In this document: positions 6,632-62,374 of the stretch, one piece after another
Position numbering within the stretch: the stretch's first letter is position 1
Layout: every line of letters starts with the position of its first letter
Assembly (NCBI GenBank): GCA_050732635.1
Contig: JBOHRE010000003.1
Coordinates: 1,924 to 65,923, forward strand
Length of the DNA: 64,000 bases
Direction of reading: 5' to 3'
Source: Longimicrobiales bacterium
GTDB taxonomy: Bacteria; Gemmatimonadota; Gemmatimonadetes; Longimicrobiales; RSA9
Made by a program: the position numbers and the translations under genes
Notes under the pieces: model-generated
What the model was told of the DNA's origin: nothing
The model's database searches: none
The model's input: only the letters and a program-made list of their open reading frames with translations

Positions 6632-8191
6632 CTAATCGGCGAACGCTGCGGCTTCGGGGCGCTCGGCCGCTGCCGCGCGCTCGAATCGATAACGGTGCGC
6701 GGCGCCGCCGTTGACGGCCGTATCCCAGAGCACGGGCAGGTCTCTGAGCCAGCCGCCAGCGACCGCGAGAAGCGCTACGCAAAGCGTGGCCACCCGGAGC
6801 CGCTGCTGCGGCTTCCAACGCAATCGTTCGACGGCCAGCCGCGGTGCGGCCAGCACGATTGCCGCCGGCACGACCAGCAGCGCGTGCAGCGGCACGGCAT
6901 ACCGCGACAGCGAGTATGTCACGCCGAAGACCAGGGTCGCGTGGCCGATGTACAGCAGCGCGAAGCCGCGGAATGCCGATGGCGCCATCACCGCCAGGCC
7001 CGCGAAGCCGGCGATCACGAGCCCGGCGAAGAAGGCGGCACTCACAGGCGTGAGCAGCGGCGACAACCATTTTCTGGCCCGCGGGCCGTACCAGCCGTTG
7101 CGCAGGTGGCGGAGCAGGAACGAATCGAGCGTCCAGAGGTGCTGCGCTTCCCAGGCGGCCTTTCGAAGAAAGCGATCGGGCGCAGCGGCTATATTGGCGC
7201 GCGCGAGCTCCATGGCAGCCGCTTGCGCGCGCGCCGCATCGTGGACGACGAGCTGCTCGTAGCGCTCACCACCGATCCGGCCGAACCGCTCGCTCCAAAA
7301 GTCGTCCTTGTCGACGTACGCGGCTTCGGGCTGATTACCGACCAGAAAATTGAAGGGGCCGTTGCTATCGACCAGGATCGGCGCGCCAGTCACCTCGAGA
7401 TTACGCAGCGTCCAGGGCATGACCACGAACAGGGCAGCGCAGGTCAGCAGCGCAAACCGAGCGGCGAAGCCCGACCAGCTCGGCATCGTCCACCCACCAG
7501 CCGCCGCCGGCGTGGTGGCTGCGCGGCGCCGTCGCTGGATCTGCAGTGCGCCCCACGGCAGGAGCAGCGGCGCAAAGCTCAGGATGATAGGCCGAGTCAG
7601 ACCCGCGAGGCCGAGTGCCAGCCCGGCTACCGCCCAAGGGGCGAGGCCGTTCTCGTGGATGGCCACAAGAAGCCGGTCGATCAGCACTAGGAGCAGGAAC
7701 AGGAACAGCGTCTCCGACCATAGCCGGTGCGAGAAGGACACGAGCACAGGATCAAACGCAATCAGGCCCGCCGCCACACGGCCAACAGTAAGCCCGAAGT
7801 GGCGCCGTGTGATCCTGTAAACCAGCAATATGGTGAGGGTGCTAAGCACTGCCTGCGCAAGCCGAGCGCCGACCGAGCCGAGTCCCAGCGCAAGAAAGGC
7901 CGCCAGGAACGCGGGATAGAGCGGTGGTCGGAACGTAGTCGGGAATCTACCCTCAGAGGCGATGCTCTCGGCGAGCGTCAAATACACGGCTTCGTCGAGA
8001 ATCGGACGCTGCGTGTCGGCGATCAGTGCGAGGACGGTCTTGAGTGCCAATGACGTAAGAGCGATCGTGAGCAGTACGCGGTCCGGGCCGCCGCGTGAGA
8101 CCGGCGAGGTCCCCGGTCTGCTGTCGGGCTCAAACATCGGAGCCACCGTCGCGTCGCTGAGCTCTCCCATCGCGTTGCGCACAGAGTTCAA
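6632..8191 (-). CDS. GT-C fold polytopic glycosyltransferase (ArnT/PMT_2-like)
   Basis: 519-aa multi-TM ORF with RPILDEAVYLTLAESI (D-E loop motif). The track start is TTG 8191, overlapping the upstream stop as TTGA. Alternative ATG at 8170. Confidence 0.8.
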   Translation of the reverse strand: MNSVRNAMGELSDATVAPMFEPDSRPGTSPVSRGGPDRVLLTIALTSLALKTVLALIADTQRPILDEAVYLTLAESIASEGRFPTTFRPPLYPAFLAAFLALGLGSVGARLAQAVLSTLTILLVYRITRRHFGLTVGRVAAGLIAFDPVLVSFSHRLWSETLFLFLLLVLIDRLLVAIHENGLAPWAVAGLALGLAGLTRPIILSFAPLLLPWGALQIQRRRRAATTPAAAGGWTMPSWSGFAARFALLTCAALFVVMPWTLRNLEVTGAPILVDSNGPFNFLVGNQPEAAYVDKDDFWSERFGRIGGERYEQLVVHDAARAQAAAMELARANIAAAPDRFLRKAAWEAQHLWTLDSFLLRHLRNGWYGPRARKWLSPLLTPVSAAFFAGLVIAGFAGLAVMAPSAFRGFALLYIGHATLVFGVTYSLSRYAVPLHALLVVPAAIVLAAPRLAVERLRWKPQQRLRVATLCVALLAVAGGWLRDLPVLWDTAVNGGAAHRYRFERAAAAERPEAAAFAD

Positions 8192-10071
8192 CGATCGTGT
8201 GCGCGCGCGCGGCGAAATGGCTGGAGCAGATGCATGGCATCTGGCGAATCAGCGAGGTTCGCGCGTTCGCCCGGGTCCATCTCGAGATCATAGAGCTCCT
8301 CACCGCCCCCACTCGTCCATATGTAATGTATGCCGTTCTCGACCAGGGAAACCATGTCGCCGTTCGCCGCTGGATACCATTGCGGTAAGCGCACGCCTTG
8401 CGTTACCTCCGAACGGACAGGTCCCCGAGACCCGTACGTGCTGGATTCCCAGTATCGCGCCATCGAATTCCCCGGAAACGACGCGGCGGTGTCGAACGTC
8501 AACTCTGCGATAGTCGAAGCGAGATCCGTCAGGCCGACCGAATGCTCGACTCTTACGCCTTGCGGGACGCCCGGTGGATAGAAGATCAGCAGTGGGACGT
8601 GCAGCGCGGGCATGTACAAGGTATGTCCATGCAGGTAGGCGCCGTGCTCTCCGAATTCCTCGCCGTGGTCGGATGTGACGATCACGAGCGTGTTGTCGAG
8701 CAGCCGCCGATCCTCGAGCGCCTCGAATAGAGCCGCTATTTGCGCATCTATGTACAAGATCGACGCGTCGTAGCTATTGATCTCCAGGCGTAAATCGTCG
8801 GGATCCATACCGTCGCGACGCTGTCCTGGAGTTGTGCGACGCAGAGGGCTCAAGCGGCCTGGCCGGTCGGCCCCCGCGATTACGTGATAAAACGAGTCCG
8901 GCGGCAAATACGGGTCGTGCGCATCGAAATAGTTCAGAAAGGCGAAGAATCGGCGGTCGCTAGGCGAGTCGATCCAGCGCAGGAATTCCTCGTTGATCGT
9001 CGCTGCGCTCCTGCGCCCGAGGAGCTCATCCGTGCCGATCAGCGCTCGCAACGCGCGTCGCGGGGCGATCATGCGGCCGAGCGTTGAGCTCCTAATGAGC
9101 TCTGCGACGGAAATCGGATGATCCACATACGTATGGAACCCGCGATCGAGGCCGGTTTCATACGTCGCATATATCAAGTTCGCGACGAAACCGCCCGTCC
9201 GATATCCACGTTCCGAAAAGAACTCTGCCAGCGTGGGCTCGGCCTCATCCAAGGGGACGAGCCAATCCGCAGACAGCTGGTGTGGCAAGAGCCCGGTGAA
9301 GATGCTCGCGTGCGACGGAAGCGTCCATGGCGCGGGCGACAGCGCCTGGTCGAACACCACGCTGCGCGCCGCGAGCCGGTCGAGCCACGGTGTCGTCGAC
9401 CGTGCGTACCCGTACAGGCTGAGGTTGGCGGCCCGGACGGTGTCCAGGATGATGAGCAAAACGTTCGGGCCTCGCTGTAAAGTGGAGGCAGCTCGTCCAC
9501 CGCCAGCTTTCCCGATCGCGTGAGTCGCGCTGAGCCCGAAGCCGAAAAGAACCACTGCCGCCGCAAGCCACGGGGTGGTCCGGCGGAGGAGCTGCCCGAA
9601 GTCAGGTGGTGCAGCCGCAGCTCTACGCGCGGCGGCTGCTGCGATGCCGATCACGAGCAGCAGAAAAGCTATCCAATGGAGCCGCTGAAACAGGTACGGG
9701 AACAGGACCACGAGCACCGCCGGAATTGCCAGCACGAAGACTGTCGCATCAGTGCGAGTCCAGCGAGGCCGGTACTTAGCGATCACGGCAATGACGAGCG
9801 CGGCCAGGCCGAAGAAAACGACATAAACGATTGGCACCATCCAAGCGTAGTGTGGGCTTCGATGGATGAATTCGCCAAGCACGAAGCGACGAACAGTAAT
9901 ACTCGAGGCATCCGCGAGCCCTGTAAGCAACGCGAACCAGAGCCCAATACGGATTACTTCGCGGCTACTGGATGTCTCCCGGTCGGCGACGCTGGGCCTC
10001 GGCTCACGACCGCGATGTGTATCTAGGTGTTGGGGATGCGCCCTCGGCCGCGACACTGGTTTCATGGTCAT
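8188..10071 (-). CDS. Membrane-anchored sulfatase-fold (alkaline-phosphatase superfamily) enzyme, paralogue 1; LtaS/EptA/OpgB-like architecture
   Basis: About 190-aa N-terminal region with ~5 hydrophobic helices, then NVLLIILDTVRAANLSLYGY...TPWLDRLA...SPAPWTLPSHASIFTG and VIVTSDHGEEFGEHG. This is the sulfatase scaffold, but C-x-P-x-R is replaced by T-L-P-S-H. ATG 10071 forms an ATGA overlap with the upstream stop. Confidence 0.85.
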   Translation of the reverse strand: MTMKPVSRPRAHPQHLDTHRGREPRPSVADRETSSSREVIRIGLWFALLTGLADASSITVRRFVLGEFIHRSPHYAWMVPIVYVVFFGLAALVIAVIAKYRPRWTRTDATVFVLAIPAVLVVLFPYLFQRLHWIAFLLLVIGIAAAAARRAAAAPPDFGQLLRRTTPWLAAAVVLFGFGLSATHAIGKAGGGRAASTLQRGPNVLLIILDTVRAANLSLYGYARSTTPWLDRLAARSVVFDQALSPAPWTLPSHASIFTGLLPHQLSADWLVPLDEAEPTLAEFFSERGYRTGGFVANLIYATYETGLDRGFHTYVDHPISVAELIRSSTLGRMIAPRRALRALIGTDELLGRRSAATINEEFLRWIDSPSDRRFFAFLNYFDAHDPYLPPDSFYHVIAGADRPGRLSPLRRTTPGQRRDGMDPDDLRLEINSYDASILYIDAQIAALFEALEDRRLLDNTLVIVTSDHGEEFGEHGAYLHGHTLYMPALHVPLLIFYPPGVPQGVRVEHSVGLTDLASTIAELTFDTAASFPGNSMARYWESSTYGSRGPVRSEVTQGVRLPQWYPAANGDMVSLVENGIHYIWTSGGGEELYDLEMDPGERANLADSPDAMHLLQPFRRARAHDR

Positions 10072-11957
10072 GGCCGCTGAACACCGGCCACGGCCGGCGC
10101 GTCTTCGATCTCCACTCGCCAGTCCAGCACGCCGGGTTCCGACCGTCGATGCAAGTCTGCACGGAGGGAACGGAGCACGAAGGAGGTCCGCTCCTCATCC
10201 GCCAGATTGTGCAGTTGCTGGGGATCACTCTCGAGCTCGTAGAGCTCTTCCGCTCCGGACTCGTACAGTGTGAACTGCCACCGGCGCGTCACGACCGCAG
10301 CCAGCCAACCTCGCGAGCTGGGCCAGTTCGCATCGACCATCGACCGGCGCGCGAGCTCCGCGAGAACGGCAGGCGGCGAGGTCGCGGCCTGGAACATCGA
10401 GGGCTGCGGGAAGCTCGACTCGAAACCCAGCAGCTCGGCGATCGTCGTCGGAATCTGGGCCACACCGACCACCTGGCTCACGCGCTCGCCGACCGGCAGC
10501 CCAGCACCAGAGCGAACGATCATCGGGATGTGCAGCTGCTCGCGATACAGGCTGTGGCCGTGGTACATCATACCGTGCTCGCCCCAGCTCTCGCCGTGAT
10601 CGGAGGTGACGATGATGACCGTATTGTCGAACAGGCCGCGGTCGTCCAACGCCTCGAACAGACGCCCCAGCTCGCTATCCAGGTACGCGATCGACTCGTC
10701 ATAGCGGTCGACCATGCTGCGCAGCTCGGCCTCGTCGGGCAGTGTGATATCGTCGCTCAAGGCACCGATATCGATCTCCCTGGGCCTCTCGCTCACCGGC
10801 GCCACAGCCGAAAATCGGCCCCGGTAGCCCTCGGGCGGGAGGTAGGGCCCGTGCACATCGAAATAGTTCACGAAGGCGAAGAACGGACGCTCGCCGAGCG
10901 CGTCGATCCAGCGCAGAAGATCCGCGTTCACATCGGCCGCCCACTTGCGACCGGGCACATCGATCAGCCCGAATCGCGGCAGTACCTCATAGGCCAGCCG
11001 CCGGCCCAGAACCGTACGCGCCACAGCGTCGCCCAGTGAACCCCAGAAGTCTTCGTAATGGATGAAGCCTCGATCGAGACCGGTCTGGCGACCCACCCAG
11101 AACGTGTTGGCTATGAAGCCGCCGGTGGCGTAGCCGCGCTCCTGGAGGAACTCCGCAAGTGTGGGGAAACGGTCATCCAGGTAGGGACGCCGCATGACCC
11201 CGGCTCGGTGCTCGTGCAGCGCGCGCCCGGTCATCATCGTGGCGTGTGTGGGCAGCGTCCACGACGACGTCGCGTAGGCGTTCTCGAACAGCACACCCTG
11301 CCGCGCCAGGCTGTCGAGGTGGGGCGAAGTCGCCCGTGGGTAGCCGTAGCTCGAGAGGTGGTCTGCTCGCTGCGTGTCCAGCACCAACAGGAGCACGTTC
11401 TGCGAGCGCGTGGCCGGTTCCGGAAGCCGTCTCAATGCGAGGGCTTCGCGAGTGCGAGCAACACCAGCCAGACCCGCGAACAGCACCAGTACGGCGGCTG
11501 CCAGCGCCGGCAGCGTGCGTCGCACCAGCCGAGCGGCGGCAGCGCGACGTCGCCGGTACAGCCGCGCGGCGGCGACACCGACGCCGGCGCCGAGTACACC
11601 CGCCGCGAGATCGGAGATGCCAAGGCCGGGCAACGTGGTCGCGAGGAATGCGCCGCCGCCGACGAGAAGCGCGACGAGCACACTGTCCCACGGCGCGCGC
11701 CGTATGATGAAGGCCAAGCCGCTGCTCAGCAGGGCGACCGCCGCGAAGACGAAGGCGTAGAACAGCGGTGCAAAGGCGAGCACGTACGCCGAGTTACCAG
11801 TTCGCCATGACAGCGCTCCGGGCACGAAGCCCAACGCCACGAACAGAAAGGCTTCGATGAGGCCGTAGACGAGTCCGAGCCAGACGGCAAGAGACAGCAG
11901 ACGGAGCTGCGAATGCGAGTGCGTCAATTCGGCGCCCTCCTCGAACGGCTCGCCCAT
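10068..11957 (-). CDS. Membrane-anchored sulfatase-fold enzyme, paralogue 2
   Basis: N-terminal multi-TM region, then NVLLLVLDTQRADHLSSYGY...SSWTLPTHATMMTG...IIVTSDHGESWGEHG. ATG 11957 overlaps the upstream gene end by 34 nt. Confidence 0.85.
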   Translation of the reverse strand: MGEPFEEGAELTHSHSQLRLLSLAVWLGLVYGLIEAFLFVALGFVPGALSWRTGNSAYVLAFAPLFYAFVFAAVALLSSGLAFIIRRAPWDSVLVALLVGGGAFLATTLPGLGISDLAAGVLGAGVGVAAARLYRRRRAAAARLVRRTLPALAAAVLVLFAGLAGVARTREALALRRLPEPATRSQNVLLLVLDTQRADHLSSYGYPRATSPHLDSLARQGVLFENAYATSSWTLPTHATMMTGRALHEHRAGVMRRPYLDDRFPTLAEFLQERGYATGGFIANTFWVGRQTGLDRGFIHYEDFWGSLGDAVARTVLGRRLAYEVLPRFGLIDVPGRKWAADVNADLLRWIDALGERPFFAFVNYFDVHGPYLPPEGYRGRFSAVAPVSERPREIDIGALSDDITLPDEAELRSMVDRYDESIAYLDSELGRLFEALDDRGLFDNTVIIVTSDHGESWGEHGMMYHGHSLYREQLHIPMIVRSGAGLPVGERVSQVVGVAQIPTTIAELLGFESSFPQPSMFQAATSPPAVLAELARRSMVDANWPSSRGWLAAVVTRRWQFTLYESGAEELYELESDPQQLHNLADEERTSFVLRSLRADLHRRSEPGVLDWRVEIEDAPAVAGVQRP

Positions 11958-13753
11958 TGGACCGGCGGGACGGTCGCGGTGCCGGATCGCGCCGGATGCG
12001 CACGCTCTGCCTCTTTCAGCCGCTGCCGCATTCCCTTCAGGATGGGCTCCGCTGATCGGCTACGGGACAGATCGACCATCTCTCGAGGATCGCGACGGAG
12101 GTCGTACAATTCCTCACGCCCATTTCGGTAATGGATATAATGCCAGTCTTTCATCACGATCGAGGCGTTGCGACCGAGCTCGGACACGGCGACAGCCGTA
12201 TCAGCCGTCGCGCGCGCATTTGCCCACAGCCGGGTCAGCGGGCGCCCCGGGACTGCGGCAGCACGGTGTCCGACCAGCTCGAGCACGGTCGCAGGAAGAT
12301 CCCGTAGCGTCGCCGGTGCCGGGATCCGCTGCCCAGCAGGTATCGCGGAGCTTCCGGGGAACGAGATCAGGAGCGGCACGTGCAGCGCCGGCATGTAGAG
12401 ACTCGTGGCATGGCCGGTGCGGCCATGCTCCCCGAAGAGCTCGCCGTGATCCGACGTTATGATCAGGATCGTGTTGTCGAGAATGTTTCGGCTGTCGAGC
12501 TCATCGAGCAGTCGACCGATTTCGTGATCCATGTATGCTATCGCGGCATCGTACCGGCGGACCGCCTCCCGACCGCTTCGCGGCTGCGCCCCGAACGAGC
12601 CGAACCAGCGCTCCGTAAAATCCGCCTCGCGCTGCTCGGCACTTTGCCACAGCGTATCAAACGCTTCCGGAGCCGAATACGGCCGGTGCGCATCGAAATA
12701 GTTGAGAAATGCAAAGAACGGCCGCTCGCTCGTATCCAGCCACGCGAGAAATTCCGCGTTTACTTCCGCGGCACTCTTCCGCGAGCTGGTCCGCTCCTCG
12801 ATATCCTCGAAGTAACGCGTCAGGTGGAGAAGCTGGCCGGGTGTGGAGCTCAGCAAGAGCTGCCACAGGTTGATCGGACTGCTACTGAAATGGATGAATC
12901 CGCGGCCGAGGCCACTCTCCCGCGTCGTGTAATAGTAATTGGCCGTAAACGCAGCGGTTTGATAGCCGCTGTCGCGAAGCAGCTCCGCCAGCGTAGCATA
13001 CCGTTCGCCGAGCGGCCGCTGGAAGCCGAACTCCAGCTCTCGTGGGTGTCGACCGGTGAAAATACTGGCGTGCGAAGGAAGCGTCCAAGGCGACGTGACG
13101 ATCGCACGATCGAACACAACAGCGCGCTGAGCAATCCGTTCCAGTCGCGGTGTCGTCAAACGCTCGTAACCATACAGGCTGAGATTGGCGGCGCGTACGG
13201 TATCGAGGATGAGCAGGAGAACATTCGGCGATTCGGCTCGGGCCTGAGGCACGTCGGCAGAGCTGATCTGCTCGGCGGTCAAGCGCGTTCCGATAATGCC
13301 GACCATGAGGAAGCCCACGGCTGCGGCCATTGGTCCCGCCGTGACTCGGACCATCCGGCGAAACCCAGCCCAATGAGACGCGGCCAGCCAACCGGTTTGG
13401 ACCGCTAGACCGAGAGACAGCGCCGCCAGTGCAGCGGCGTGCCAGCGGTCTCCAACAACGAGGCTGAGCAAGCTCCCATACGCGCACAATGCGAAGATGC
13501 CGACCACGAGCGCAGGATCCGCGAAGCGATCCCGGTATAGACTGGCGAGCCACAGCGCGAGTCCGACCAGACCGAAGAAGAGGACGTAGGAGAGGGGCGA
13601 CATCCAGGCCACGTGAACGCTCGCCCACACGATCTCGTGGAGCGCGTACCGCTGGATCAACAGCACGGCGGCCTCGACGAATCCGCAGATCAAGCCGAAC
13701 CAAGCCGCGATCAGCAGAATCGGAGACCTCGTCCGCGCGCTGCCCAGTGCCAT
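11924..13753 (-). CDS. Membrane-anchored sulfatase-fold enzyme, paralogue 3
   Basis: The ORF track gives 11924..14383, but its first 210 aa overlap the upstream membrane-protein gene and are Arg/Gly-rich. ATG 13753 (MALGSARTRSPILLIAAWFGL) overlaps the upstream TGA as TGATG. Motifs NVLLLILDTVRAANLSLYGY...SPWTLPSHASIFTG...LIITSDHGELFGEHG. Confidence 0.8.
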   Translation of the reverse strand: MALGSARTRSPILLIAAWFGLICGFVEAAVLLIQRYALHEIVWASVHVAWMSPLSYVLFFGLVGLALWLASLYRDRFADPALVVGIFALCAYGSLLSLVVGDRWHAAALAALSLGLAVQTGWLAASHWAGFRRMVRVTAGPMAAAVGFLMVGIIGTRLTAEQISSADVPQARAESPNVLLLILDTVRAANLSLYGYERLTTPRLERIAQRAVVFDRAIVTSPWTLPSHASIFTGRHPRELEFGFQRPLGERYATLAELLRDSGYQTAAFTANYYYTTRESGLGRGFIHFSSSPINLWQLLLSSTPGQLLHLTRYFEDIEERTSSRKSAAEVNAEFLAWLDTSERPFFAFLNYFDAHRPYSAPEAFDTLWQSAEQREADFTERWFGSFGAQPRSGREAVRRYDAAIAYMDHEIGRLLDELDSRNILDNTILIITSDHGELFGEHGRTGHATSLYMPALHVPLLISFPGSSAIPAGQRIPAPATLRDLPATVLELVGHRAAAVPGRPLTRLWANARATADTAVAVSELGRNASIVMKDWHYIHYRNGREELYDLRRDPREMVDLSRSRSAEPILKGMRQRLKEAERAHPARSGTATVPPVQWASRSRRAPN

Positions 13754-15300
13754 CAGCTGCTCGGGTGTGGGGCAGCGATTGGTGCTGCCACGCGGCGATC
13801 GCTTGGCGCCGCCGGAGCGACTGTCGAGAAGCGCCCGGTCCACCTGATGATCGCTACCATGAGCACGACTGCCGTGAGGTATGTGATAAGTCCCAGGCGC
13901 GGTGCCGATTCGATCAGCCAATCGACACTGAGCAAGGGCGCCGCGACCGCGAAGGCCAGGATGAAAGCTGCGAGCCGCGTCTCCCAAATCAATGCCGCCA
14001 GCGGTAATACCCAGAGAACGAACCACGGCCAGACGTGGCCGACCACCACGAACAGGATCAGCGCCATTACCGCCAGGCTCGCACGTGCCAGGTGCTTCGC
14101 ATCGGGATTTCGAAACAGAGCCGCCAGGTAGTAGAGCAGGAGCCCCGTGCCGAGACCCGCGAACACCGCCGTTGCGATCGGAACCGTCAGCGGCACGCCG
14201 GCCATGCGCGCGAGTGAAGCCAGCGCCACGCCCGGAGTCCAGAACACCCAGTTCTGCATCTGTCGAGTAGCGTCCAGCACGTGCGTGTCCCTGGCGAAAA
14301 GTAGCATGAGCCCGGCAGCTGCGAGAATCGATACACCCGCTCTGAGCAGATACCGCCGATCGGTGAGTCGGCGCTGCCGCCATGCGATGAGCAGCTCGAG
14401 TGCGGCCAGAGGCGCAGTCACATATTTCACCAGCGCGGATACGAACAGCGTCGGCATGGCCCAGCCTGACCAGCGCAGGGGCCGGCTGGCGCAGAAGAGC
14501 CAGAAAACCATGAAGAAGGCCATGACGATGTCGTTATGGCCTTCGCCGATCGTGAGATGGGCGGATACAGGCAGCCATCCAAAGAACACGACAGTCAACG
14601 CCTCGTGAAGCGGCGAGCGGGTCCGCGCTTCGCGCCGCAGCAGGAACAGCGTGCCGATCCAACATCCCGCCAGCGTGAGTTTGAACAATAGGAAAGTAAG
14701 CCAGACGCTACTGCCGCCGAGCGCGGCGAGAAACGCGGCTACCAGACCCCAAGCGGGCCCATAGGTCATGCGATCGCCGAAATCCTCGACCGGTAGACCA
14801 GCCATCGCCGAGGTCGTGAACGCGTCGTAGTACGGGTTCGCGCCTGCGCCGATCATGCGACCCCAGATCACGGACAGCCAGAAATCCTGGGTGAACGCCG
14901 GTAGCGCGAAGACACTGATCAATGCGGCTCCGCAGGCGAAGCCGGTCAGGTTTCGGATCGCGCTGCAGTCGATCCGATCCGGCGCCCTGGCGATTCGCCA
15001 GGCGACATACACGGCCGCCAGCGTTGCCAGGAGCAGGGGCCCAAAATAGACAAGCAGCCGAATGGCCGGCTCGGTCAGCGGGGAATCGCCGCTGACGTAC
15101 CGAGCCAGCGCATCCCGAGCATCAGCCGGGAGCGGCATTGCGGCAGAGAATCGCTGCAGAAGGTCCAGCTCTCGAGGCTGCTCGATCTCACGCGGTGAGA
15201 CTGGCGCCAATCCGAACGAGATCGGTACGAGCGCAGCGAAGGCAATGAGGTGGAGGAGCCCCGCCAGCCGGATGTCCCGGATCAGCTCACTTCCGTGCAT
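13753..15300 (-). CDS. Polytopic membrane glycosyltransferase-like protein (GT-C, MptB/GT87/DUF2029-like)
   Basis: More than 10 hydrophobic helices. Motifs TQDFWLSVIWGRMIGAGANPYY, MTYGPAWGL and GEGHNDIVMAFF resemble polyprenol-phosphate-mannose-dependent mannosyltransferases (from memory, needs an HMM check). Start is ATG 15300 (MHGSELIRD) or GTG 15327. Confidence 0.65.
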   Translation of the reverse strand: MHGSELIRDIRLAGLLHLIAFAALVPISFGLAPVSPREIEQPRELDLLQRFSAAMPLPADARDALARYVSGDSPLTEPAIRLLVYFGPLLLATLAAVYVAWRIARAPDRIDCSAIRNLTGFACGAALISVFALPAFTQDFWLSVIWGRMIGAGANPYYDAFTTSAMAGLPVEDFGDRMTYGPAWGLVAAFLAALGGSSVWLTFLLFKLTLAGCWIGTLFLLRREARTRSPLHEALTVVFFGWLPVSAHLTIGEGHNDIVMAFFMVFWLFCASRPLRWSGWAMPTLFVSALVKYVTAPLAALELLIAWRQRRLTDRRYLLRAGVSILAAAGLMLLFARDTHVLDATRQMQNWVFWTPGVALASLARMAGVPLTVPIATAVFAGLGTGLLLYYLAALFRNPDAKHLARASLAVMALILFVVVGHVWPWFVLWVLPLAALIWETRLAAFILAFAVAAPLLSVDWLIESAPRLGLITYLTAVVLMVAIIRWTGRFSTVAPAAPSDRRVAAPIAAPHPSS

Positions 15301-17143
15301 GATCCGCTGTGGCCAGCTGCTGCGCACGCCGGAGCTCGCTGCGCAGCTCAGCCATTACGCCAGCCATGGATGGCAATCCACTCAGATCGTGCGCCTGACC
15401 AGGATCACGCACGATATCGAACAGGAGCTCGGTTCCGTCACCATTCTGGATGTACTGCCAGTCGCCGCGGATCACCGATGCCATGTCGCCCTTGCTCACC
15501 GGCCATTCCGGCGGTGTTCGGATGCCTTTGGTGAGTGCCGCGAGCGCCGGCACGTCATTTCTCCGGACATCGCCGGCTTCGCTCAGGTCCCGCCAATATG
15601 GATTCAGACTCTCTCCCGAAAACTCCGCATCCAGGCCTGCCAGCTCGGTAAGCGTCTGCGCCAGAGTTCGCACGCTGACCACATTGTCGACTCGCATGCC
15701 GGCGGGGATGCCCGGACCCCACACGAACAGCGGCACACGCAGGACCGGCATGTACAGGCTATTACCGTGTCCCGTGAGATCCTGCTCGCCAAACATCTCA
15801 CCGTGGTCCGAAGTCACGACCACCACAGTGTTCTCGAGGACATCTCGGCGCTCCAGCGCAGTCAGCAGCAGGTGCAGCTGATCGTCCAGGTAAGCCAGGG
15901 CTCCATCGTACCCTTCGATGCCTCGGTTCTCATGCCGGAACCGCCGTCGGTACTCGGACGGGGGACGGTACGGCTGGTGAGCATCGTAGTAATTCAGAAA
16001 GACGAAGAACGGACGTTCGTCGGCCCCATCCAGCCAGTGAAGGAACTCCTTGTTCACCTCGGATGCGTCCTTACGGTCGGAAAATGGATGGTACGGCTGC
16101 CAGCCCGCCCGCCATGCTTTCACACGCTGTCCCAGGCCGGCCGTGAGCAACCACTGCCTCCAGGTCCATTTATAATCGCGATACTCCAGAAACCCTCGCG
16201 CGAGACCGGAATCGTGGCCGGTGTACAGCAGATTCGCCACGAAGCCGGCGGTCAAATAGCCGGCGTCGCGAAACGCCTCGGCGACTCTCGGGAACCGCCG
16301 ATCCAGCGGAACCTTCCAGTTGGTCTCCAGTTCGACTGCCTCTCGACCGGTGAAGAGACTCGCATGCGTTGGCAGCGTCCATGAAGACGTCGCGATCGCA
16401 TGGTCGAACGTCACGCCTTGTGCCGCCCACCGATCCAAATGCGGCGTGGTCAGTCGTTCGTAGCCGTACAAGCTCATGCTTTGGGCGCGTACGGTGTCGA
16501 GAATGATCAGCAGGATGTTGCGGCTGCCGCTGGGAACGGTCCCGGTCAATGCGGCCATCTCATTCCGCTGCGTAACTAGCCGCCATCCTCCAGTTCCAGC
16601 GGCCGCGGCGATCACGAGAGCCAGAAAGAGAGCCAGCGTGCGAGCGACCAGGGCTTCGAATCGCTGCCAACGTTGGCGAGTCATTCGCGTGATCTGGATG
16701 GCCAGTCCGAGTGCGAGTCCGGCTGCGCCCCAAGCATTCAATAGATGCCAGCCGAACGTGTTCAGCAGACCGAAGCAGGCGAGAAAGGCAAATACGAAAA
16801 CGGCCGCGAGTCTCGATCGGTCGCTTCCGGTGAGCCACGGCAGCAGTGCCAGAGCCAGGATCGGCAGCGTGAAGAAAGCAAGATTCGCAAGCGGTGGCAG
16901 CCACAGCGCGTGGAAGGGTAGCCAAACAAAACGATCGAGCAACAGCAGCACGGCTACACGACCAGCTTCAACGAGCCCGCCCGCTAAAGCGAACCAGATG
17001 CCGATCAGTGCAATCCAGCCGCTGGCCAACAGCCTTTGTCGGACGAGCTGCGCTGCTGCAGCGGATGCCGCCGCTTCACGCTCGCGGCCGGGCGGCATTA
17101 GCGTGCCGCTCGATAGTGGCTGGTTCATAGGGCGAGGGCACAA
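15287..17143 (-). CDS. Membrane-anchored sulfatase-fold enzyme, paralogue 4
   Basis: N-terminal multi-TM region, then NILLIILDTVRAQSMSLYGY...SSWTLPTHASLFTG...VVVTSDHGEMFGEQD. The track start TTG 17143 lies 3 nt after the upstream TAA. Alternative ATG at 17128. Confidence 0.85.
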   Translation of the reverse strand: MCPRPMNQPLSSGTLMPPGREREAAASAAAAQLVRQRLLASGWIALIGIWFALAGGLVEAGRVAVLLLLDRFVWLPFHALWLPPLANLAFFTLPILALALLPWLTGSDRSRLAAVFVFAFLACFGLLNTFGWHLLNAWGAAGLALGLAIQITRMTRQRWQRFEALVARTLALFLALVIAAAAGTGGWRLVTQRNEMAALTGTVPSGSRNILLIILDTVRAQSMSLYGYERLTTPHLDRWAAQGVTFDHAIATSSWTLPTHASLFTGREAVELETNWKVPLDRRFPRVAEAFRDAGYLTAGFVANLLYTGHDSGLARGFLEYRDYKWTWRQWLLTAGLGQRVKAWRAGWQPYHPFSDRKDASEVNKEFLHWLDGADERPFFVFLNYYDAHQPYRPPSEYRRRFRHENRGIEGYDGALAYLDDQLHLLLTALERRDVLENTVVVVTSDHGEMFGEQDLTGHGNSLYMPVLRVPLFVWGPGIPAGMRVDNVVSVRTLAQTLTELAGLDAEFSGESLNPYWRDLSEAGDVRRNDVPALAALTKGIRTPPEWPVSKGDMASVIRGDWQYIQNGDGTELLFDIVRDPGQAHDLSGLPSMAGVMAELRSELRRAQQLATADHARK

Positions 17144-43109: not shown

Positions 43110-43127
43110 GTACATGCTGGAGTGTAC
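43110..43127. promoter_or_regulatory. Palindromic GTACA-N8-TGTAC element abutting the lexA start (speculative LexA operator)
   Basis: GTACATGCTGGAGTGTAC was read directly. It overlaps the GGAG SD and ends 1 nt before ATG 43129. No known LexA-box consensus was matched with confidence. Confidence 0.2.
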
Positions 43128-52143: not shown

Positions 52144-52188
52144 CCCCGCCCCCGCGCCCGACCCTCCCCGCCCCCGCCCCCGCCCCCG
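52144..52188. repeat. C-rich tract with repeated CCCCG/CCCCCG runs (G-quadruplex-prone on the minus strand)
   Basis: ccccgcccccgcgcccgaccctccccgcccccgcccccgcccccg was read directly. It is intergenic, between the FHA operon and truA. Confidence 0.8.
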
Positions 52189-52190
52189 TC

Positions 52191-52310
52191 GATGGTTCAT
52201 GGTTGGTGGTTGGTCGTGCCCGCCGGACGCCAAAGGTGACCGGGATGCCCCACGTGCCGCGAACGCCCATCAACCATCAACCATCAACGATCAACCACCA
52301 ACCACCAACC
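52191..52310. repeat. Inverted arrays of a heptamer repeat (GATGGTT-type versus CATCAAC/CACCAAC-type)
   Basis: Left array GATGGTTCATGGTTGGTGGTTGGTCG (52191-52216). Right array (CATCAAC)x3 GATCAAC (CACCAAC)x2 (52268-52310). The left arm matches the reverse complement of 52288-52310 at about 20 of 23 positions. Confidence 0.7.
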
Positions 52311-52389
52311 CCCAACGCCACCCAGCGCCTAGACGCGCACTCCACAGCACTGCTGTGGCGCGCTTGACACCCTCGCCCCCCAACCTACC

Positions 52390-59552: not shown

Positions 59553-60260
59553 ATGCACGTCGCGATCGTCACCTTCCCCGGCTCCAACTGCGACTACGAT
59601 TGCTACAAGGCGATCCGCGACGTGCTCGGCGCCCACACCGAGTTCGTCTGGCACCGCGAGACCTCGCTGGGCGACGCCGATGCGCTCATCCTCCCCGGCG
59701 GCTTCAGCTACGGCGACTATCTGCGCGCCGGCGCCATCGCCCGCTTCAGCCCGATCATGGAACCGGTGCGCCGCTTCGCCGCCGCTGGCCGGCCCGTGCT
59801 CGGCATCTGCAACGGCTTCCAGGTCCTGTGCGAGGCGGGACTGCTGCCCGGTGCGCTCGTGCGCAACGACACGCTGCGCTTCGAGAGCCGCACGGTGCGC
59901 GTGCGCGTCGAGAACACGTCGACGGCCTTCACCAACGCCTATGAGCCCGGCCAGATCCTCGAGCTGCACATCGCCCACGGCGAGGGCTGCTACGTGGCCG
60001 ATCCCGAGACGCTGGACAGGCTCGAGGCCGAGGGCCGCGTCGCGTTCCGCTACGTCGACCGCGGCGGCCGCGCCACGGCGGAGGCGAACCCGAACGGATC
60101 GCTCCGCAACATCGCGGGCATCGCCAACGACGCTGGCAACGTTCTCGGGCTGATGCCGCACCCCGAGCGCAGCGTCGAGGCCCTGCTCGGGTCGACCGAC
60201 GGACTGGGCGTCTTCGAGTCGCTAGGGCGCAGCGTCCCCGCTCGGGCCCCGACCTCGTAG
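59553..60260 (+). CDS. purQ: FGAM synthase glutaminase subunit
   Basis: [21 protein letters not shown]...[12 protein letters not shown]...[17 protein letters not shown]...MPHPER. Confidence 0.95.
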
Positions 60261-60336
60261 CTCTCCAGGTCGGCCGGCCCCGTCCATACCAACGGGTCAG
60301 CCGTCGTGCAGGTTGACGCGCCGCGGCGACGGGCGC

Positions 60337-60418
60337 GGCTCGTACCTTCTCGGCCCCTCTGATTTTTGGTACAACCTGTACAGCCGACCGCCGGTGCCTG
60401 AGCCGATGGGACAGCCCG
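60337..60418. repeat. Left arm of a long imperfect inverted repeat
   Basis: Core TTTTGGTACAACCTGTACAGCC (60364-60385) matches the reverse complement of 61088-61109 at 19 of 22 positions. Weaker similarity extends about 30 nt inward and about 20 nt outward. Confidence 0.6.
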
Positions 60419-60710
60419 AGCCTCACTCCGCCGCACGCGCCGGTCGAGGATGCCGGTCGAGTAACCCGCCGGCCGAGTCACCTGCCGGGCCGTGCACCCT
60501 GCCGGCCCGGGCACGCTCGGCCCAGGAACCCTCCCAGCCCAGGCACCTGCCGTCCCAGGCACGCCGGCTCAGGCACACCCTGACAGCCAAAGGCACCACG
60601 GCCCAGGCAGCTGGCGGCCGAGTCGTCGCGTCCCGGGAACTCGGCCCGGCCCAAGCGTTCGCTCCGCTGCCCGATCGAGCGGCTCAGCCTTGACGTCACG
60701 AACGGCCCGC

Positions 60711-60724
60711 TGTAAACGTTTACA
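60711..60724. promoter_or_regulatory. Perfect 14-bp palindrome TGTAAACGTTTACA (LacI-family operator-like) overlapping a TACAAT box
   Basis: Read directly. It fits the generic LacI/CcpA/PurR-type pattern TGnAAnCGnTTnCA. TACAAT at 60721-60726 overlaps its right half. TTGACG at 60690-60695 is 25 nt upstream, which is too far for a canonical -35. Confidence 0.5.
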
Positions 60725-60731
60725 ATCAGCA

Positions 60732-61050
60732 GCCGCCGAGCGTGGCCGGACCCGAAAAACATTGCAGGACGAGCCGCGGCCGCTGAGCTGGCGGAACCCG
60801 AAAAGCATTACAGCACGAGCCGCGGCCGCTGAGCTGGCGGAACCCGAAAAACATTGCAGCACGAGCCGCGGCCGCCGGCGTGGCCAGACCCGAAAAACGT
60901 TGCAGCACGAGCCGCGGCCGCTGAGCCTGGCGGAACCCGAAAAGCATTGCAGCACGAGCCGCGGCCGCTGAGCGTCGCGGAACCCGAAAAACATTGCAGC
61001 ACGAGCCGCGCGGCCGCTGAGCGTCGCGGAACCTGGAACGAGCAGCGAGT
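60732..61050. repeat. Tandem array of about 6.5 copies of a 46-47-bp unit (non-coding minisatellite)
   Basis: Unit example: GCGGCCGCTGAGCTGGCGGAACCCGAAAAACATTGCAGCACGAGCC. Unit starts read at 60732, 60776, 60822, 60868, 60914, 60961 and 61008 (the last is degenerate). The unit length is not a multiple of 3 and the units are contiguous, with no spacers. Confidence 0.9.
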
Positions 61051-61054
61051 GCCG

Positions 61055-61125
61055 CGGGCTGGCGCATCGGTCGACTCGGCGGCGACGGGCTGTACAACAT
61101 GTACCAAAACCACGAGGAGACGAGC
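61055..61125. repeat. Right arm of the long imperfect inverted repeat
   Basis: Core GGCTGTACAACATGTACCAAAA (61088-61109). See the left arm at 60337-60418. Confidence 0.6.
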
Positions 61126-61327
61126 GGGTAACGGCCGGCTCGGAGCACGCGGCCGGCGGGCGGCGGACGACGGCGGGCGCCACAGCGCCAGTCGCCGCAA
61201 TCGAGGTGGCCGGCCGGACACCCCGGCGCGGTGACCCAGAGGCGAGCCGGGTTGGGCGGGCGTCGGGGCGGAATCGAGCGCCGCTAATTGTGGGCGGCGC
61301 GTTGGCCCACGTGCAACTGCGCGCGGG

Positions 61328-62374
61328 ATGGGCACGACGATCAAGGACGTGGCACGGGAGGCCGGCGTCTCGGTGGCGACGGTGTCGCGCGCGTTCAATG
61401 GGAGCGGGCCGGTGCGTCCGGACACGCTGCGGCGGATCGAGGACGTGGCCGAGCGGCTGCGGTACCGGCCGCACGGCGGTGCGCGCAGCCTGATCACGCG
61501 GCAGACGCGCACGGTAGGAGTGCTGCTGCCGGATCTGTACGGTGAGTTCTTCTCCGAGGTGCTGCGCGGCATCGACAAGACGGCGCAGGCGCGCGCACAC
61601 CATATCCTGGTGTCGAGCTCGCACAACGAGCGCGAGGAGCTGGAGGCGGCGGTGGCGGCAATGCACGGCCGCGTCGATGGCCTGATCCTGATGGCCCAGG
61701 ACACCGGGGTCGCGTCGCTGCTAGGCGAGATTCCGTTCGGCCTGCCGCTGGTGCTGCTGAACTGTCGGGCGGATGGGCCGTACGACTCGATCACCATCGC
61801 CAACGAGCGGGGCACGCGCGCGGTCGTGCGCCATCTGAGCGCGCTCGGTCATCGACGGATCGCGATGATCAAGGGTCCGGACGGCAATTTCGATGCGGCG
61901 GAGCGGCTGCGCGGGTATCGCAAAGGGATGCGCGAGGCGGGGGTGACGAGCACGTCGGCGCTGGAGCTACCAGGCGCCTTCACGGATGCGTCGGGGTACG
62001 CGGCGGCCAAGCATCTGCTGAGGATGCGGCCGCGGCCAACGGCAGTGCTGGCCGCCAATGACACGACGGCGCTGGGCGCACTGAGCGCGCTGCGTGAGGC
62101 GGGCGTCGCGGTGCCGGACGACATCGCGGTCGTCGGCTTCGACGACATTCCGATGGCGCGCTATCTCAATCCACCGCTCACCACGGTTCACGTGTCGATC
62201 CGGGAGCTAGGCAAGCGAGCGGTCGAACGGCTGCTCACGGCACTGGACGATAAGGACGCGCACGAACCGCGCGAGGACGTGCTGCCGACGCGGCTCGTAG
62301 TGCGTGGCACGTGCGGCGCGCCGACGCTGACCGGCGGCAGCCACGCAGCTGACACGGACGAGGGGCAATGTTGA
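61328..62374 (+). CDS. LacI-family transcriptional regulator
   Basis: MGTTIKDVAREAGVSVATVSRAFNGSGPVRPDTLRRIEDVAERLRYRPHGGARSL (HTH_LacI), followed by a periplasmic-binding-protein-like sugar-binding core. Confidence 0.9.
   Translation: MGTTIKDVAREAGVSVATVSRAFNGSGPVRPDTLRRIEDVAERLRYRPHGGARSLITRQTRTVGVLLPDLYGEFFSEVLRGIDKTAQARAHHILVSSSHNEREELEAAVAAMHGRVDGLILMAQDTGVASLLGEIPFGLPLVLLNCRADGPYDSITIANERGTRAVVRHLSALGHRRIAMIKGPDGNFDAAERLRGYRKGMREAGVTSTSALELPGAFTDASGYAAAKHLLRMRPRPTAVLAANDTTALGALSALREAGVAVPDDIAVVGFDDIPMARYLNPPLTTVHVSIRELGKRAVERLLTALDDKDAHEPREDVLPTRLVVRGTCGAPTLTGGSHAADTDEGQC

Follow-up and report, generated by a model that had tools for sequence, protein, structure and literature searches.

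The 64-kb window analysed here, by which we mean the whole stretch of Longimicrobiales DNA introduced above, derives from a short-read metagenome-assembled genome (MAG). Within it, the genes purB, purC, pssA, purS and purQ (59553-60260, + strand) are followed by a gap of 1067 bp, and then by lacI, a GH3 glycosidase gene and a gene for a TonB-dependent receptor that carries a carboxypeptidase-regulatory-like domain. The gap, which is the subject of this text, comprises the two arms of an imperfect inverted repeat, two tandem arrays of very different preservation and, between the arrays, a palindromic operator of the LacI family that overlaps a predicted promoter (Table 1). The closest relatives of the window proteins share 64% identity with LacI and 80% with PurQ, and the locus itself was found in one genome only.

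Table 1. Features of the spacer between purQ and lacI, in window coordinates
Feature	Position	Strand	Description
Left arm	60300-60418		Imperfect 119-nt inverted repeat; begins 40 nt past the purQ stop codon (60260)
Left arm core TTTTGGTACAACCTGTACAGCC	60364-60385		Palindrome GTACA-ACC-TGTAC
Degenerate tandem array	60439-60609		13-18-bp units of GCCGG(N)CGAG / CCCAGGCAC type; upstream of the promoter
Predicted -35 hexamer TTGACG	60690-60695	+	15 nt upstream of the palindrome; putative -35 role by analogy with the TTGACA of relatives
LacI-family operator TGTAAACGTTTACA	60711-60724		Perfect 14-bp palindrome; overlaps the predicted -10 and TACAAT
Minisatellite of 46-47-bp units	60729-61038	+	Seven units, five of them full, with the first shortened and the last degenerate
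Right arm	61055-61174		Within the predicted lacI leader; also in Logan contig L001 (positions 75-194)
Right arm core GGCTGTACAACATGTACCAAAA	61088-61109		Palindrome GTACA-ACA-TGTAC
Remaining leader	61175-61327	+	Read from sequence
lacI	61328-62374	+	Opens the lacI-GH3-TonB-dependent receptor operon predicted to be controlled from this region; product with the Pfam domains LacI and Peripla_BP

The operator and its predicted promoter

The palindrome TGTAAACGTTTACA fits the LacI-family operator pattern TGNAANCGNTTNCA, a palindrome of 14-16 bp with a central CG, and is the sole match to it at up to 3 mismatches in the window, which leaves lacI with no second operator there. Loci were fetched for the LacI proteins most similar to that of the window (59-64% identity). 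The same palindrome, with 0-1 mismatch, occurs in four independent relatives (L013, L016, L017-L019 and L043/L044), where it precedes the first gene of the lacI operon by 56-71 nt. TTGACA stands 14-15 nt ahead of it in L013, L016, L017 and L043, and the module conserved upstream of the lacI operons in the four independent relatives can be written as TTGACA-N14/15-TGTAAACG(T/A)TTACA. In addition, the helix-turn-helix segment VSVATVSR is invariant among the LacI proteins of the window, L013, L016 and L017. Because the palindrome, the TTGACA geometry and the invariant recognition segment recur together in relatives, we regard positions 60690-60724 as the predicted LacI-repressed, autoregulated promoter and operator of the lacI-GH3-TonB receptor operon. 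Judging from the conserved geometry, transcription probably starts at about 60725-60730. The motif TTGACA-N14/15-TGTAAACGTTTACA is usable for finding the targets of this clade of LacI proteins, both in Gemmatimonadota and in neighbouring MAGs.

The locus departs from its relatives in the length of sequence that follows the operator. The distance to the lacI start codon is 603 nt here compared to 56-71 nt in relatives, which is about 540 nt longer than in any of them. No terminator-like site was found on the + strand upstream of lacI; a G+C hairpin of 7 bp at 61278-61300 (GCGCCGC-N9-GCGGCGC), 27 nt before the lacI ATG, has no U tract. An earlier sequence-only reading of this DNA had offered, as one explanation, a non-coding RNA transcribed from the TACAAT box. 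Rightward transcription is indeed likely, given that the box overlaps the operator and a conserved -35 element lies nearby, whereas a separate RNA gene is disfavoured by the lack of a + strand terminator, of excess folding and of an Rfam match; the array that follows the box most plausibly belongs to the lacI-GH3 leader.

The two tandem arrays and the predicted lacI leader

The array of 46-47-bp units begins at 60729-60732, just past the operator and no more than a few bases from where transcription is predicted to start. Tandem Repeats Finder delimited it to 60732-61033 with a period of 46, 6.4 copies, 88% matches and a score of 460, in agreement with the roughly 6.5 head-to-tail copies that had been counted from the sequence alone; apart from the adjacent degenerate array (131), nothing else in the window scores above 72. 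A profile built from five units and run with nhmmer recovered seven in-register copies at 60729-61035, and a 33-nt conserved block occurs five times within 3 mismatches, compared to 0 occurrences expected from shuffles. Each unit holds the short palindrome GCGGCCGC. The units abut, the period equals the unit length and there are no unique spacers, and the array thus failed a test for CRISPR. Given its onset at the predicted start, together with the lack of a + strand terminator and of a second operator, we propose that the array is an insertion-like enlargement of the 5' leader. Most simply, the expanded leader of lacI would consist of this array together with the right arm and about 150 nt of G+C-rich sequence.

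The left half of the spacer, which had been described as quasi-periodic, contains a second array upstream of the promoter. Over 60451-60609, Tandem Repeats Finder reported a period of 16-17, 3.5-7.1 copies and 70-76% matches, with a score of 131, and three further repeat families from the repeat-finding run span the same stretch of 60439-60609. This array is real, but it is far more decayed than the 46-bp array.

Neither array reads as coding sequence. The spacings of the long units (46, 46, 46, 47 and 47 bp) allow no sustained reading frame, G+C content varies little with codon position (0.65-0.83) in each of the element's four parts, compared to 0.69/0.50/0.94 in purQ, and none of the nine open reading frames (ORFs) of the element has a Pfam match. 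These results bear out the judgement that the region is non-coding. The possibility of a decayed gene or of an assembly artefact might draw on the long ORFs that stay open on both strands and on a break within the 46-bp array in a Logan assembly made independently from the same run. We regard it as the least probable of the explanations: no homologous gene was found in relatives, where the sequence-only reading had suggested looking for an intact protein, and the codon-position and Pfam results given above point the same way. Moreover, the independent assembly reproduces the right arm and the last units, its contig L001 beginning in the sixth of the seven units, which leaves only the copy number at risk. 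Given the short-read MAG and the break of the Logan assembly in the array, the exact copy number is not secure and should be taken as provisional. Searches for further assemblies of the locus with purQ or with two internal ORFs found none, and a contig carrying pssA stops short of purQ.

Variation among the units shows no sign of a conserved functional block. An apparent hotspot of variation in a 13-nt block (Fisher p = 0.0002) was due to one divergent unit; without that unit the variation is uniform (p = 0.6), and a constrained or hypervariable 13-nt block was dropped as a candidate. In the left half of the spacer, a sequence in inverted orientation matches the divergent block at 16 of 18 positions, which suggests template switching among the local repeats. 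No unit contains an operator-like sequence at up to 3 mismatches; neither this nor the uniform variation supports the protein-binding array that had been put forward as another explanation. Derivation of the unit from the ancestral leader of relatives was also considered and rejected, as the similarity is not significant.

The units are A-rich and weakly structured, and GGA is present in six of the seven. These properties, together with an array that begins at the predicted start of a regulated promoter, would suit a functional leader RNA, in which the seven A-rich units bind an RNA-binding protein or a small RNA and act as a sponge, or as a control of stability or translation, upon release of LacI. 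We consider such a function improbable. Folding of the array does not exceed that of shuffles (z = -0.35 on the + strand and -0.53 on the - strand; -0.5 to +0.9 overall for array and arms), and no covariation was found among the units, two variants of which would form small hairpins in different registers; the proposal that one or more units fold under covariation, raised earlier as a check, thus found no support, and no conserved hairpin links the unit types. Nor do the units show a pattern of constraint. The search of Rfam returned no family, its best match being a partial resemblance to DUF805b over 16 nt (16.8 bits, where the gathering score is 35.6; E = 0.21), which may be counted in favour of a leader RNA, although weakly. 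The unit was not found in relatives or in the collections searched.

Read on the - strand, every unit at 60810-61009 takes the form of a 5-bp hairpin (GCGGC UCGU GCUGC) that includes one G-U pair and has AAUGUUUUUC after it. As candidate - strand terminators, these hairpin-U5 sites (five, compared to 1.0 expected) were rejected as a by-product of the repeat, there being no - strand gene or promoter to the right.

The inverted-repeat arms and the synteny breakpoint

The cores of the two arms, 22 nt each, are identical at 19 positions in inverted orientation, as had been read directly from the sequence, and all three mismatches fall in the central N3 of the GTACA-N3-TGTAC palindrome that each core contains. 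The weaker similarity around the cores was likewise correctly seen, but it extends over about 119 nt and not over the 70-80 nt first estimated. Local alignment of 60300-60418 against the reverse complement of 61055-61174 gave a score of 52, compared to 19.4 +/- 2.8 for shuffles (maximum 33), and the duplex energy of the arms is -149.6 kcal/mol, compared to -93.4 +/- 6.6 kcal/mol for shuffles. The duplex comprises 87 Watson-Crick and 6 G-U pairs across 119 nt, and the complementarity of the arms is about 73%. Neither strand is richer in G-U pairs than the other, and the arms therefore represent a repeat at the level of DNA; an RNA helix under selection was rejected on the same ground, and no folding excess over shuffles was found for the arms. 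A global palindrome was also rejected, as the inverted matches have no common axis.

Perfect GTACA-Nx-TGTAC sites (x = 0-20) number only four in the window. This scarcity, the perfect half-sites in both arms combined with a central N3 that differs at all three positions between them, and the location of the promoter close to the midpoint of the cores would all be accounted for if some dimeric regulator bound GTACA-N3-TGTAC at both cores, about 350 bp from the promoter, and looped the DNA between them as GalR and DeoR do. We give this arrangement only a small chance. The GTACA-N3-TGTAC site was not found at the lacI operons of relatives or elsewhere in the window, the similarity of the arms spans 119 nt, well past the size of an operator, and no candidate regulator was identified. 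In comparison with the sigma-54 promoter, the NtcA and CRP sites, the cop box and the cyanobacterial LexA box, the arm core fails in its spacing or invariant positions. A host LexA box was rejected as well, as the candidate box at lexA is spaced by N8 and not N3. This candidate, GTACATGCTGGAGTGTAC at 43110-43127, is a perfect GTACA-N8-TGTAC with a GGAG centre, and only 1 nt separates it from the ATG of lexA (43129); it has the half-sites of the arm core at another spacing, and could serve this lineage as its LexA box or form a hairpin that surrounds the ribosome-binding site.

Since the arms flank a segment that holds the promoter (60690-60724), and since the operon downstream encodes an outer-membrane TonB receptor of SusC type, an inverton has to be weighed: a site-specific recombinase acting at the arm cores would flip the 700-bp segment between them and phase-vary the lacI-GH3-TonB receptor operon, as in Bacteroides. 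Gemmatimonadota and Bacteroidota share a superphylum, which may be counted for this reading, and identical stretches of 10 and 9 nt beside the core centre could serve as the crossover region. The flipped form would be expected to carry junctions in which GATTTTTGGTACA...TGTACAGCC is joined to CGTCGCCGCCGAGTCGACC, with 60386-61087 in reversed orientation. We think such a switch unlikely. The core centres are not complementary in inverted orientation (ACC versus TGT), and Logan contig L001 spans the right arm in unchanged orientation. No transposase or recombinase was found among the roughly 45 genes of the window and the 3 kb beyond it covered by L001, although a recombinase could act in trans. 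In the papers searched, none linked invertons to Gemmatimonadota; in general, inverted repeats around ordinary promoters are common, and promoters that lie between inverted repeats are often not invertons (PMC11602134).

The same arms recall the long terminal inverted repeats of a mobile element, and a miniature inverted-repeat transposable element (MITE) or other non-autonomous element bounded by them had been among the first suggestions; the location of the spacer at a breakpoint of synteny, described below, would fit such an insertion. This explanation now appears very improbable. No target-site duplication is present at either possible pair of ends (outer-end flanks GGGTCA / GGGCGC, core flanks CTCTGAT / CCACGAG), the arms are only about 73% complementary, the window encodes no transposase, and the interior holds the conserved promoter and operator of the operon itself. 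Further copies are equally lacking: profiles of the arms and of the unit run with nhmmer found no second copy in the window or in any of the fetched loci, and when the loci of relatives were compared by alignment and with these profiles, only the operator aligned. An exact-pattern scan with the arms gave chance matches only, 11 in a collection of genome contigs that does not include the source genome, all of them in unrelated taxa, and 17 in metagenome and viral contigs, mostly of low G+C content and with dissimilar flanks; the unit pattern gave none in the metagenome and viral contigs, and blastn against plasmid and phage collections gave none. Three of the arm-pattern matches, in Nevskia-like contigs of 66-68% G+C, were rejected as an unrelated cluster of GTACC-N4-GGTAC operators. 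In these contigs (L007 2880-2925, L022 800-850 and L035 1320-1370), overlapping palindromes TGTACCGATAGGTACA, TGTACCTTTTGGTACA and GGTACAAGATGTACA lie between a divergently transcribed gene and a putative AraC-type regulator gene, and matched the arm pattern by chance.

Comparison of gene order clarified where the spacer lies. In Longimicrobiales relatives whose PurQ is 77-80% identical (L038-L042), the order is htrA-purB-purC-pssA-purS-purQ-purL-purF, whereas in the window (59553-61328) the lacI-GH3-TonB receptor cluster stands in the place of purL after purQ. Because purL is replaced here by the lacI cluster, the spacer marks a breakpoint of synteny. Tandem or inverted repeats are also present in other spacers of this window, some of them rich in microsatellites, and in the same operon of one relative (L038); spacers in this lineage thus seem prone to the growth of repeats. 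In L038 (4800-4950), the purS-purQ spacer has expanded to 565 bp and carries, besides an inverted repeat of about 26 nt (GGAGCGGGAACGTTTACGTTTACGGGG / CCCGTGAACGTAAACGTTCCCGCTCC), both hexamer repeats and one small ORF more than usual. Upstream of truA, the spacer at 52144-52316 of the window contains (CCCCGC)n and seven CCATCAA/CCACCAA heptamers, with a complementary TTGGTGGTTGG stretch at 52190-52215 and TTGACA-N16-TACCTT at 52354.

Elsewhere in the window, on the - strand at 8188-17143, lie three paralogous genes for sulfatase-domain products of about 620 aa. Two of them are adjacent, and the third follows beyond two genes without a Pfam match, one of which is on the opposite strand. They adjoin glycosyltransferase and PMT_2 genes, in what looks like a cell-envelope locus.

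Interpretation and comparison with known systems

On balance, and with a confidence somewhat above even, we interpret the spacer as a repeat-expanded regulatory region, in which a leader minisatellite of the variable-number tandem repeat (VNTR) type, seemingly young and specific to the lineage, has grown at the LacI promoter of a glycan-utilisation operon and is bracketed by an old, imperfect inverted duplication. RNA polymerase would start at about 60725-60730, from the promoter that consists of TTGACG and a -10 region overlapping the operator, and LacI bound to 60711-60724 would block it until a sugar ligand is present. The transcript would then cross an untranslated leader of about 600 nt into lacI. 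The first 300 nt of this leader would be the minisatellite, which may have arisen from the initially transcribed sequence by replication slippage or unequal recombination, and the 16-17-bp array upstream of the promoter would be an older, decayed array with the same kind of origin. The two 119-nt arms, in turn, may represent an old inverted duplication formed at the synteny breakpoint during rearrangement. The repeats themselves are presumably close to neutral; any effect on expression is most likely at most quantitative, exerted through the length of the leader and possibly through a variable copy number. If the copy number does vary, the array would serve as a natural marker of strains, and also as an experiment made by nature on the length of the leader.

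Several observations weigh against this interpretation. The core is kept far better (19 of 22 positions) than the sequence around it in the arms, with mismatches confined to the centre of the palindrome, a pattern expected of a binding site for a dimeric protein and not of neutral decay. The promoter lies nearly midway between the arms, with 325 bp to the left core and 363 bp to the right one. The predicted -10 element (TAAACG/AAACGT) fits the consensus weakly, and a generic promoter scan of the region returned nothing. The start site and the read-through into lacI are predictions drawn from the sequence. Finally, the copy searches were confined to the window, the fetched loci and public collections. 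A combined design, in which the arms are functional for a recombinase or a looping protein around the LacI promoter, so that repression is joined to control through DNA topology with the array as a tuning knob, would take up some of these points; we hold it to be a slim prospect. Active arms would give Gemmatimonadota its first described promoter switch, and nothing that we found makes that likely.

As the sequence-only reading had noted, no known family fits the element as a whole, and its resemblances to known systems are partial. Like the sponge RNAs of CsrB/RsmZ type, the predicted leader would carry a repeated short unit on an RNA from a regulated promoter, with GGA in most units; it differs from them in that its units are not presented in hairpin loops, that it lacks both a terminator of its own and an Rfam match, and that it is not conserved beyond this genome. 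Partition sites of sopC type and iteron arrays share with the minisatellite tandem units of about 45 bp, each with a short palindrome (GCGGCCGC in the minisatellite), and the sopC site of the F plasmid is an array of 12 x 43 bp. Here, however, the array is chromosomal, lies among housekeeping genes in a predicted leader, and is accompanied by no partition or replication genes that we could find. Invertons such as fimS, hin and the promoters of Bacteroides polysaccharide utilization loci and capsules share the inverted repeats that bracket the promoter of a surface or uptake operon. Compared to them, the spacer has no recombinase that was found, its core centres differ, its arms are long and degenerate, and a single orientation was seen (L001).

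Bacterial minisatellites offer a further comparison. The array shares with them, and with the mycobacterial interspersed repetitive unit (MIRU) loci among VNTRs, a homogenised centre, degenerate end units and a host of high G+C content. In Mycobacterium, MIRU-VNTR loci have units of 46-100 bp in operon spacers of a genome that is likewise high in G+C, and the present array resembles them in its head-to-tail units of 46-47 bp within a non-coding spacer. MIRUs are a dispersed family built on one common unit, and carry short coupling ORFs, whereas the unit described here was found at a single locus in the 64 kb and the collections. There is also a likeness to the autoregulated promoters and operators of the LacI family (cre-like or PurR-like, with a central CG), with which the spacer shares a perfect 14-bp palindrome placed over the promoter and conserved upstream of lacI operons whose LacI has an identical recognition segment; the spacer is set apart from the LacI-family promoters of its relatives by the long leader described above. 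Altogether, the 1.07-kb gap is best understood as a recognisable LacI promoter and operator to which lineage-specific repeat growth at a synteny breakpoint has probably been added, rather than as a new type of element.

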